From the sequence record OK272484.1: DNA of 64,000 nt, one strand, 5' to 3'. The stretch's first letter is position 1, and each line of letters begins with the position of its first letter. The notes beneath the pieces were generated by a model, which was given only the letters and a program-made list of their open reading frames with translations, searched no databases and was not told the origin of the DNA. This DNA is from Escherichia phage JLBYU22. This document shows, piece by piece, positions 25,093-30,450 of the stretch. The position numbers and the translations under genes are program-made.

Positions 25093-27186
25093 TTATCCTT
25101 GAACGAACTTGTAAGGCATGTTTGTAATATCTATGCAAGACGCAATAATTCCAAGAGATGATTCTACTTTTTGTTTAACATTTGATGAAACAAATGATGC
25201 AAAGTCAACTCTGTCTTCTATTTCAATATCACCTGTCATTGCAACTACTTCGCCGGTTTCCATTAAATGGTCTCCATCATAGATTACCGATTCGGTGAGC
25301 TCTTCCGTGGTCATAACTTCAGCTTGAATGAGTTTTGTATTATTAGACGTGGTTCCGTCATTATTAGAAGCATCAGTTATTTTATTAACTTTGACCATCA
25401 ATCCGCGCGGTAGAATAACTTCAGCTTCTGTTGCTATTCCGAGACTTCCTGGATATACAACATTAACTTTATGAGCTCCATCAATTGCCCATCCTATTTG
25501 AACTTTAACGTATTCAGGATTTTCTTTATACGCTCTTATTTCGTTTGGATTAATAGTTATTCCTTCTTCATTTTTATCAACTGTCAATTCATTACGAGCT
25601 TCTGGTTCTAAAAGACCAATACCAGCATGTGTAATTCCAAAACGTCCAAAAATGATAGGAGTTAAAGAAGTAGATACAAAATTTCTGAAATAGAACACTT
25701 TATTTTTAACTAGTGCTTCGTATATAGGAGCAGTCATACTTTGAGCACGATAAACTGTGATGCCTTCCGGTATGCGGTCACCATTTTCAAAAGCTGAATC
25801 TAAGTTATTTATAGCAGATTCAATTTCTTTTTCACTCATTACATCATATCGTTCTGGATTGTAACGACCTAAAAGAAGATTATTGATGTCAGTATATCCT
25901 GAACCGCAATATTCTCTAATGCCACGCTTTTGTGATGGAGTATATTTAGAACCATCGCGGGCAATAGTAATATCAATCATTGGACCAGCACCAATTCCAG
26001 AAAAACTGTAAATCATTCGTTTGAGGAATTTAGTTTTTGCTGCGTTCCAGGAATTTTTAGTTATTTCTTCCCAGACTTCATCTGGTTGTCCTTTACGATT
26101 TTTATTATGATTAGCAAGCCATTTATCTTTATAATCTTCAAAGAATTGATTTACAGCTGCTGCGTATTTCTCTAAACATTTTATTGAAGTAGTTGGTTCA
26201 TTTTTAATCGCATTAAGAATTACATCTTTAATTTTTTCAGAAACTTCATTAACCTCACTTTTTGAAAAGAATTTATAGTCATAATGAAGTTCATCTGCAG
26301 TTCCTTCGGCAATGATTTTTGCTGCTTTAGTTTTAGAAGCTAATGAATTAATTCCAAGCTTCATTTCTTCTGCTTCGGGAATTAAAGGAGCCGTAGCAGG
26401 TTTATTGAAATTAGCTGCGGTAGATTCATACTTTTGGAATAATTCACTTTCAAATCTAGAAGATTCTAATGATTGACTTTGTGCAATTGCTCTACGGGAA
26501 ATTTTAACTTTAACGATTACAGCTTGGTCAGAACGTTTATCGTTTTCTTGCGCAATAGATGCAGCAATTGCCTCATTTTTAGTTACTTGAGCTCCAGTAT
26601 CTTTATTGATATAAACATCACCGACCTTTGATTCAACTTTAGTAAAGAGCTCGGTACTAATTTCCGGAACTCCTGGAATGTCTTCTAGTGATACATTTTT
26701 GCGATGTATAAGAATATATGCATACTTTTTATCGTAATCCCAGAGTTCCTTAAGAAGGACGTATCTACCACCTGAACGACTACGGATAAGTCTATCAGCA
26801 ATAACTTGAATTTGTCGAGCTTGACCAGCGGTTTTAGACTTAAGAATACGGAGCATACAGGCATCAATTTTATACTGACGCATAGTTTGCATTGCAACAG
26901 TAAAAACTGAATTGATATAATTAATTGGGCTTGGACCAAGACCTTTTAATTTAGCAATTGAACCTTTAGCAGTTAATGTAAAAGGAACAATATGCATCAT
27001 TTTATCGCCCATCTTTAAATCGCGATTAGTATCACCTCCAGATGTATAGGTGCATAAACGAAAGCCTGGCTGTTCAATTGCATCATCAACGTGAACTGAA
27101 AAAATTTGCGGTATTTTCTTCTTTGGATTTAAGTTTGTAATCGGAAGAGTAGTATCTTCGTCAAATAATTCTGTAATAAGTTCCAT
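25093..27186 (-). CDS. alt: Alt ADP-ribosyltransferase (head protein that modifies host RNA polymerase in T4)
   Basis: About 697 aa (track has an extra Met at 27189); ART motifs YRAQ, FVSTSL and EAEVILPRG; position adjacent to gene 30 as in T4. Confidence 0.85.
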   Translation of the reverse strand: MELITELFDEDTTLPITNLNPKKKIPQIFSVHVDDAIEQPGFRLCTYTSGGDTNRDLKMGDKMMHIVPFTLTAKGSIAKLKGLGPSPINYINSVFTVAMQTMRQYKIDACMLRILKSKTAGQARQIQVIADRLIRSRSGGRYVLLKELWDYDKKYAYILIHRKNVSLEDIPGVPEISTELFTKVESKVGDVYINKDTGAQVTKNEAIAASIAQENDKRSDQAVIVKVKISRRAIAQSQSLESSRFESELFQKYESTAANFNKPATAPLIPEAEEMKLGINSLASKTKAAKIIAEGTADELHYDYKFFSKSEVNEVSEKIKDVILNAIKNEPTTSIKCLEKYAAAVNQFFEDYKDKWLANHNKNRKGQPDEVWEEITKNSWNAAKTKFLKRMIYSFSGIGAGPMIDITIARDGSKYTPSQKRGIREYCGSGYTDINNLLLGRYNPERYDVMSEKEIESAINNLDSAFENGDRIPEGITVYRAQSMTAPIYEALVKNKVFYFRNFVSTSLTPIIFGRFGITHAGIGLLEPEARNELTVDKNEEGITINPNEIRAYKENPEYVKVQIGWAIDGAHKVNVVYPGSLGIATEAEVILPRGLMVKVNKITDASNNDGTTSNNTKLIQAEVMTTEELTESVIYDGDHLMETGEVVAMTGDIEIEDRVDFASFVSSNVKQKVESSLGIIASCIDITNMPYKFVQG

Positions 27187-27209
27187 CATAGCCTCTCTAG
27201 TGTTTATTC

Positions 27210-28887: not shown

Positions 28888-29153
28888 TGTTCATCCTTTA
28901 GAGTTTGGTTTACAGCTCTATTATAAATCAATTCATCATTAAGCTCAGTCAAAGACCTGTGGTACGTGGTTCTAACTTTATTTCCTTGCATCCAGTGCTT
29001 GACGTAAATGAAACCTTGCTCTACACATTTTTTAAAAATTCGTTCGTCTTTTTGAGCTCGGAATTCTGGATTGCATCTAAAAAATTGATTTACGTGACCG
29101 TAATCACGTGTAGTATTACCTTCATTTTCATAAATAGTGTGAACGACAAACAT
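28884..29153 (-). CDS. Hypothetical protein (T4 30.1 position)
   Basis: 89-aa ORF, coupled to neighbours. Confidence 0.6.
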   Translation of the reverse strand: MFVVHTIYENEGNTTRDYGHVNQFFRCNPEFRAQKDERIFKKCVEQGFIYVKHWMQGNKVRTTYHRSLTELNDELIYNRAVNQTLKDEQ

Positions 29154-29989
29154 TAGAATGCTCCTTGGAAAATATTATCACCACTAGTAGGTCTATTATA
29201 CAAATACTCTATGCCACCGGGCTTAATATAGTTCCATGTCTGAAACGGATGTGTCTGATATGGATGATATAGATTATAAGGATTAAATCCAGGAGTTCTC
29301 CAGGTAGTGTTCCAAGGAAAAGAATCATTTTTAATCATCTTTTCAATTACATCTTTTATAACTTTTTCACTATCAAAACTTTCTTTATTTTCCTTCGATG
29401 GAAAAAGCTTATTCTCTACATCATTCCATGTATAAACTCGCTGAGCGGTTTTTGGAATACTGTCACGCTCCCCTCGAGCCATCCAATAAACAGGAACATT
29501 TAATATTTCACTCGCGTGATCGCAATGGTGAGCGAGATCGTCAATATAACAAATTACGTTATATTTCTCTTTTGCCTTTTTGAACAACTCTTCTTTTGAA
29601 GAATCATGACCACACATCAATACTTCTGAGAAGGCACCAGGAAAAAGAGCATTCAAATTAAATTGACGATTCAGCAGAGCGTCAATAGAATCACCCAATG
29701 CTGTAACAGCTACAAAATTATAATCTTCTTTTAATTTGTTAATTACACACAGGGCATCTTTATATGGAGACAAGTAACGAATAAAATCTGAACGATTATA
29801 CTTTTCGATTAATTTAACACCGAGTTCTTCATCGCAATTAAAGAGCTTACCAGGAGAAATAAATTTTTCGTCCTGAATCATTTTTAAAATATGTTCCAAC
29901 GGAAGATTATATTTTTGGGCAAAATAAGGAAGGCCCGATTGCCAGCTTAAACATACCCCGTCAATATCAGTCAAAATAGTAGGCTTCAT
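29153..29989 (-). CDS. HAD-superfamily phosphatase-like protein (T4 30.2 position)
   Basis: 278 aa; N-terminal LTDIDGV matches HAD motif I (DxDGV). Confidence 0.65.
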   Translation of the reverse strand: MKPTILTDIDGVCLSWQSGLPYFAQKYNLPLEHILKMIQDEKFISPGKLFNCDEELGVKLIEKYNRSDFIRYLSPYKDALCVINKLKEDYNFVAVTALGDSIDALLNRQFNLNALFPGAFSEVLMCGHDSSKEELFKKAKEKYNVICYIDDLAHHCDHASEILNVPVYWMARGERDSIPKTAQRVYTWNDVENKLFPSKENKESFDSEKVIKDVIEKMIKNDSFPWNTTWRTPGFNPYNLYHPYQTHPFQTWNYIKPGGIEYLYNRPTSGDNIFQGAF

Positions 29990-30450
29990 AGAGAGTCTCT
30001 TAATAGGTTTAACACATCAATAAATTCAGCTTCGGTTAGTATTGTATCATCTTTTGTTAGACCACTAGCCATGCTGTGCTTCAAAACTTTTCCTTTCGAG
30101 GCTAGTAATGCATCACGAAAGCCCTTGTTTTGAATCGCTGCTTCAAAATATGCATTTGTGTATAATTCTTTCCACGCCGGGGAGTATCTTGAAAACGGAA
30201 CTCCAATCCAGAAGAGGGTCCCACGGTCCTGAGCTCTAGCATAAGACCTTCCAGCTTGTTGGGCGGCAAGCCCGGATAACCCAAATATACGACGTTGTTG
30301 TTCAACATTTTTCACCTTACACCCTTGGAGGAATCCTTCAAGACCTCCAAATTGAATACCATCCATAACGAAAGGCCATTGGGCGAAATTACTTAATGCA
30401 CATGATGGCCACCTAAAATTGCTTCTAATCTCTAACTCAGACATTTTCAA
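29986..30450 (-). CDS. YbiA/NADAR-like (DUF1768-like) protein (T4 30.3 position)
   Basis: 154 aa; LSNFAQWPFVMDGIQF resembles the YbiA FSNFAAWPIKVDG core; assignment from motif memory only. Confidence 0.5.
   Translation of the reverse strand: MKMSELEIRSNFRWPSCALSNFAQWPFVMDGIQFGGLEGFLQGCKVKNVEQQRRIFGLSGLAAQQAGRSYARAQDRGTLFWIGVPFSRYSPAWKELYTNAYFEAAIQNKGFRDALLASKGKVLKHSMASGLTKDDTILTEAEFIDVLNLLRDSL

Follow-up and report, generated by a model that had tools for sequence, protein, structure and literature searches.

The open reading frame (ORF) on the minus strand at 29986–30450 of the window, i.e. the whole 64,000-nucleotide stretch of Escherichia phage JLBYU22 (sequence record OK272484.1) analysed here, very probably represents adfN of the Tequatrovirus phages, the gene of a NADAR enzyme that would remove guanine-linked ADP-ribose and act against the DarTG1 defence system. 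The identity, fold, chemistry and biological role of adfN were published in 2023–2025 and are thus already known; no new biology is added by the present analysis, and there is nothing unusual about the adfN allele of the window.

Gene identity and genomic setting

The reading frame is uninterrupted over its entire length, includes the segment LSNFAQWPFVMDGIQF and comprises 154 codons when counted from a TTG. Its product is identical to T4 gp30.3 in 149 of 152 residues (98%) over the full length and without gaps, and the DNA at 30.3 and on both flanks is 99% identical to that of T4. The order of the genes on the minus strand, namely alt, alt.1, 30 (DNA ligase), 30.1, 30.2, 30.3, 30.4 ... rIII, 31 and cd, is shared with T4 as well. 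Furthermore, a 2.2-kb stretch around 30.3 is found with 97–99% identity in hundreds of T4-like phages of Escherichia and Shigella. As judged from these sequence comparisons, the window is a segment of a T4-like (Tequatrovirus) phage genome and the ORF is the ortholog of T4 gene 30.3 (AdfN), with full-length orthology, conserved synteny and none of the C-terminal helix truncation known from RB69.

The T4 coding sequence starts at an ATG corresponding to position 30444 of the window, two codons past the TTG, and the DNA at this place is the same in both phages. As two homologs of 152 residues (P0002 and P0003) start at the same methionine (MSELEIRSNF), the start of adfN is likely the ATG at 30444, resulting in 152 amino acids instead of the 154 obtained from the TTG at 30450. 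The first-pass annotation, which had described a 154-residue product, was therefore correct with respect to the ORF itself but placed its start two codons too early. The coordinates of this and all other features are compiled in Table 1.

Table 1. Features of the adfN region, in window coordinates.
Feature	Position	Strand	Remarks
adfN (T4 gene 30.3)	29986..30444	-	152 aa; predicted phage-type NADAR, DNA guanine-ADP-ribose glycohydrolase
Two extra codons (TTG AAA)	30445..30450	-	Part of the mechanical ORF call; probably outside the translated protein
Glu36 codon (GAA)	30337..30339	-	Catalytic, ADP-ribose contact; invariant in 64 homologs; aligns with YbiA E48
Lys43 codon (AAG)	30316..30318	-	Catalytic, ADP-ribose contact; nearly invariant in 64 homologs; aligns with YbiA K55
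His123 codon (CAC)	30076..30078	-	Last strand; invariant in 11 homologs, nearly so in 64
C-terminal helix (~residues 138-151)	29989..30033	-	Helix H138-151 of the model; intact here, lost in the inactive RB69 allele
30.3' internal out-of-frame ORF	30102..30308	-	'Internal translation' in T4; 68 aa vs 75 aa in T4
Gene 30.2	29153..29989	-	278 aa; HAD-superfamily phosphatase-like; NT5C-like core of ~195 aa plus variable tail

The ATG of adfN overlaps the stop codon of the upstream gene 30.4 (ATGTCTGA), an arrangement that points to coupled translation of the two genes. At the other end, the stop codon of adfN overlaps the start of 30.2 in an ATGA. A scan for promoters and terminators yielded a number of sites not above that in shuffled sequence.

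Public phage records mostly label 30.2 and 30.3 as 'hypothetical protein'. In a few of them (among H10, H17, H18, H28 and H70) genes of the block are named 'putative baseplate hub', 'tail tube cap' or 'prohead core protein', labels that look like annotation errors. A few others use 'NADAR domain containing protein' together with 'putative phosphatase' (H64).

Relationship to the NADAR fold

The window protein matches the Pfam family PF08010 (Phage_30_3, 'Bacteriophage protein GP30.3') with 234.1 bits (E 5e-70; curated gathering cut-off 36 bits) over profile positions 1-138 of 138. PF08010 was the sole Pfam match of the single sequence at E<=1, PF08719 (NADAR) being absent from this search. Likewise, single-sequence phmmer against the PDB returned a chance-level match only and no link to NADAR, and the NCBIfam search gave TIGR02464, the riboflavin N-glycosidase model, at a non-significant E of 0.16. 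Since none of the single-sequence searches established a NADAR link, profiles and structure were needed.

With a profile of 11 homologs the top PDB sequence match is E. coli YbiA (2b3w, E 0.051), located exactly on the LSNFAQWPFVMDGIQF motif. A search with the gp30.3-family profile through 1.84 billion representative proteins retrieved 1,446 clusters at E<=0.001. The alignment of 64 single-domain members of this family, compared as a profile with YbiA by hhalign, reached 95% with E 3.5e-8 over 135 columns. PF08719 itself is matched by 11 of the 64 single-domain members and by 9 of 54 longer, fused ones, with E-values down to 1e-6 and scores under the gathering threshold. The AlphaFold2 model calculated on the 64-sequence alignment has a pLDDT of 95 and a pTM of 0.90 and supersedes an earlier, mediocre model from 11 sequences (pLDDT 69); its structural matches are exclusively NADAR structures. 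According to profiles and model, the window protein has the YbiA/NADAR fold, the resemblance is not due to chance, and the protein is predicted to be a minimal, single-domain enzyme of this fold. The likeness to YbiA/NADAR proteins, which the first-pass annotation had noticed in this segment and proposed to examine by profile or structure comparison, is thus borne out by the YbiA top match, the hhalign result and the NADAR-like model.

Several members of the gp30.3 family deviate from the single-domain architecture. P0023, P0025, P0026, P0036 and P0113, representatives of about 290 residues, contain two tandem gp30.3 domains of which the first is partial, and P0024 (480 residues) harbors three gp30.3 stretches. 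Further fusion partners are ASCH, LRR_5, DUF6939 and an alpha/beta hydrolase.

Active-site residues and the C-terminal helix

The NADAR superfamily is characterized by a conserved glutamate and a conserved lysine in contact with ADP-ribose, which are present here as E36 and K43. Asn19 is also invariant in the 64-sequence alignment. The residue in the last strand differs between the branches, being histidine in phage NADARs, glutamate in YbiA and aspartate in proteins of the DarG1 type (PMC11125620, PMC12945103). Instead of the glutamate that defines the YbiA family, the window protein has His123 at this position. By virtue of this exchange it is assigned to the NADAR superfamily and to its phage branch, yet not to the YbiA family proper. 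The earlier remark that the acidic catalytic position of YbiA is not kept was accurate, the histidine being invariant or nearly so throughout the family. The doubt about activity that had been attached to it does not hold, as phage NADARs carry a histidine there and are active.

Compared with T4 gp30.3, three residues are exchanged, L80I, Q114L and I125M. All three are conservative changes which spare the catalytic residues, and Met125 corresponds to the family consensus.

Known function of T4 AdfN and proposed role of the window allele

The ability of T-even phages to withstand DarTG1 has been mapped to gene 30.3, which was renamed adfN, for anti-DarT factor NADAR (Johannesman et al., Nat Commun 2025, PMC11825919). 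Upon deletion of adfN, T4 and T2 lose the ability to form plaques on DarTG1 hosts, and ectopic AdfN-T4 restores plaquing of RB69, the allele of which is frameshifted, lacks the last 15 residues and has reduced activity (PMC11825919). Rescue is weakened by the RB69-like truncation and by the substitutions E36A and K43A, which leave it partial but do not abolish it (PMC11825919). Purified AdfN-T4 strips ADP-ribose off DNA modified by DarT1, does not interact with DarT1 in a two-hybrid assay and is without effect on DarTG2 (PMC11825919). In vitro, guanosine-ADPr is hydrolysed by T4 gp30.3 and thymidine-ADPr is not (PMC11125620), nor is cytidine-ADPr (PMC12945103). In a T4 transposon screen, 30.3/adfN was dispensable on K-12 and conditionally essential on DarTG1 (bioRxiv 10.1101/2025.11.20.689424). 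AdfN-T4 fails to protect uninfected cells from DarT1, and the non-T-even phages T5 and Bas25 are rescued weakly (PMC11825919, PMC11125620). From the lack of rescue in uninfected cells and the weak rescue of non-T-even phages, it seems that the full action of AdfN-T4 within the cell needs a further factor of T-even infection. In the Methods of PMC11125620 the cloned T4 NADAR is given as 'gp30.3; residues 1-208', which is at odds with the T4 ORF of 152 codons.

Reversal of DarT-type ADP-ribosylation of guanine as an anti-defence measure, as the first-pass annotation had put forward, has accordingly been shown for the 98%-identical T4 AdfN (PMC11825919, PMC11125620, PMC12945103). As E36, K43, H123 and the C-terminal helix are kept and the remaining differences are conservative, we infer that the window allele is a functional AdfN like the T4 protein. 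During infection, DarT1 of a host DarTG1 system would attach ADP-ribose to guanines of the phage DNA and thereby block replication. AdfN would cleave the bond between guanine and ADP-ribose, normal DNA would be restored and the phage could replicate. The enzyme would thus act catalytically in the manner of the host antitoxin DarG1 and not by binding the toxin, and it would be specific for guanine-linked ADP-ribose, leaving the thymine-linked form made by DarT2 untouched. With its adfN intact, unlike that of RB69, the phage is predicted to resist defence of the DarTG1 type. The case confirms that a real anti-defence enzyme can be recovered by reading raw sequence.

Besides or instead of acting on DarT1 products, the enzyme could reverse ADP-ribosylation of guanine in RNA, or clear side-products of the phage's own ADP-ribosyltransferases. 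The idea draws on reports that every NADAR family, that of the phages included, takes ADP-ribose off guanine in RNA as well (PMC12945103), on the full action of AdfN in T-even infections only, and on the position of alt (25093..27189, minus strand), which belongs to the same gene block as adfN, some 3 kb away and in the same orientation. It is nevertheless quite improbable, since no defect of the adfN knockout has been reported in the absence of DarTG1 and the gene is non-essential on K-12. Moreover, Alt is known as a protein ADP-ribosyltransferase and not as a modifier of guanine bases. The ORF of this capsid-packaged enzyme encodes 698 residues in the window vs 682 from the T4 coding sequence of 2049 nucleotides.

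A further reading is one of nucleotide metabolism, the window protein then being an N-glycosidase like YbiA, which cleaves riboflavin-pathway intermediates, and processing small phosphoribosyl metabolites and not DNA together with the adjacent HAD phosphatase. The fold and core motif common with YbiA, the weak TIGR02464 match (E 0.16), the translational coupling of adfN to a HAD/NT5C-like gene and the existence of rare fusions between gp30.3 and NT5C domains are all compatible with such a role. However, the YbiA-type glutamate of the last strand is a histidine here, de-ADP-ribosylation of DNA and the DarTG1 phenotype have been demonstrated directly for the T4 ortholog, and a small-molecule activity of gp30.3 was not found reported in the literature examined. 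We thus regard this reading as very unlikely, and the nucleotide-metabolism enzyme offered as an alternative by the first-pass annotation is not supported.

That the protein is a dead NADAR relic, or binds its target without catalysis, may be argued from the replacement of the last-strand Glu/Asp by histidine and from the partial rescue kept by the E36A and K43A mutants, but this is barely conceivable given that two laboratories observed hydrolysis of guanine-linked ADP-ribose by the purified T4 protein, which refutes it for this ortholog, that the two-hybrid assay revealed no binding to DarT1 and that H123, E36 and K43 are conserved throughout the roughly 1,400 clusters of the family.

The neighbouring gene 30.2

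The adjacent ORF of 278 codons, for which a HAD-type DxDGV motif had been noted, begins with MKPTILTDIDGV, and its product is identical to T4 gp30.2 in 270 of 278 residues (97%). All four HAD motifs (DxD, Ser/Thr, Lys and the acidic pair) are kept. Among 33 homologs D8, D10, G11, A97, K132, D150 and D151 are invariant, in agreement with the motif noted earlier, and T96 is nearly invariant. The window gp30.2 has no match above threshold in Pfam. Its homologs display sub-threshold matches to PF00702 (10 of 33, best E 3.5e-4) and NT5C (5 of 33, best E 1.2e-4), and the top PDB match of the family profile is the 5'(3')-deoxyribonucleotidase 2jao (E 0.0085), so that an NT5C-like assignment of gp30.2 is plausible. 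The last ~80 residues (29153..29400, minus strand) are rich in aromatic residues; among homologs they vary strongly or are missing, although many retain a short 'GIEY..N/QxPT' motif close to the end. No mention of gp30.2 was found in the literature searched.

It is conceivable, though unlikely, that 30.2 is a functional partner of AdfN and possibly its T-even factor. As a partner, gp30.2 might process the released ADP-ribose or ADP-ribosylated nucleotides. Pointing in this direction are the ATGA overlap of the two genes and the near-identical numbers and distributions over genera of phage records for the two proteins (1,510 vs 1,452), although this co-occurrence may be explained by shared ancestry within T4-like phages. 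In addition, the metagenomic proteins P0034 and P0039 are fusions with a gp30.3 domain at the N-terminus and an NT5C domain at the C-terminus, which corresponds to the T4 gene order. Against a partnership, 30.2 lies within 4 kb in only 9 of 67 divergent loci and is lacking from this range in the other 58.

Within all 80 viral loci, a 30.2 homolog is located within 4 kb of the gp30.3 homolog in only 21; its position in 20 of these, downstream on the same strand, speaks for a partnership. At 21 of 80 loci, adjacency of 30.2 and 30.3 was rejected as a general rule.

According to phmmer, the fusion partners of gp30.3-family proteins contain no sequence similar to gp30.2. With the gp30.2 HMM, a match to motif I in P0034 was all that resulted, and alignment of the 30.2 profile with the NT5C domain of P0034 by hhalign gave a probability of only 62%. 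As a further lead in favour of a link, P0034 (locus L003, 6001..6993) is encoded on a contig with genes for an ADP-ribosylglycohydrolase, RtcB and two phosphatase-like proteins as well as for a second NADAR (PF08719) and a fragment of gp30.3. Published experiments contribute two points against a link: in the chimeras, transfer of only the 3' portion of 30.3 was enough (PMC11825919), which would be uninformative should RB69 have its own 30.2, and adfN is the sole gene named for DarTG1 in the text of the transposon screen (bioRxiv 10.1101/2025.11.20.689424).

The internal reading frame 30.3'

The internal frame is open to a shorter extent than in T4, as the base change that causes Q114L in AdfN creates a stop codon in the 30.3' frame. 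Of 12 related viral loci, 8 have ACG, ATT or ATC in place of the ATG of 30.3', and at one locus the frame stops after 13 codons. With neither start nor length conserved over these 12 loci, 30.3' was rejected as an overlapping gene and is probably not a conserved gene.

Comparison with related ADP-ribose removing systems

The closest known system is AdfN-T4, with which the window protein shares 98% identity over 152 residues, the same neighbours, E36, K43 and H123 as well as the intact C-terminal helix; it differs by L80I, Q114L and I125M and by a 30.3' that is 7 codons shorter owing to the Q114L change. E. coli YbiA (PDB code 2b3w), an N-glycosidase, belongs to the YbiA family of NADARs and has a glutamate in the last strand in place of His123.

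The DarG1 antitoxins (BC4488 family; Geobacter lovleyi NADAR, 8bat) possess an aspartate in the last strand, where the phage protein has histidine, and additional N-terminal elements which give rise to a positively charged channel; the phage protein, by contrast, consists of the bare core (PMC12945103). DarG1 is encoded beside DarT1 and rescues uninfected cells, which the orphan AdfN-T4 fails to do.

Orphan phage NADARs are also AdfN-Bas32 and AdfN-Bas60 of T5-like and Vequintavirinae phages, which likewise counter DarTG1 and not DarTG2. Contrary to the gp30.3 proteins, from which they cluster apart, they were acquired independently and need no T-even factor.

The macrodomains of AdfM (T4 Tk.4) and DarG2 follow the same strategy, AdfM being a phage copy of an antitoxin-like remover of ADP-ribose. 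Their fold, however, is unrelated to that of the NADARs and their target is the thymine-linked ADP-ribose made by DarT2.
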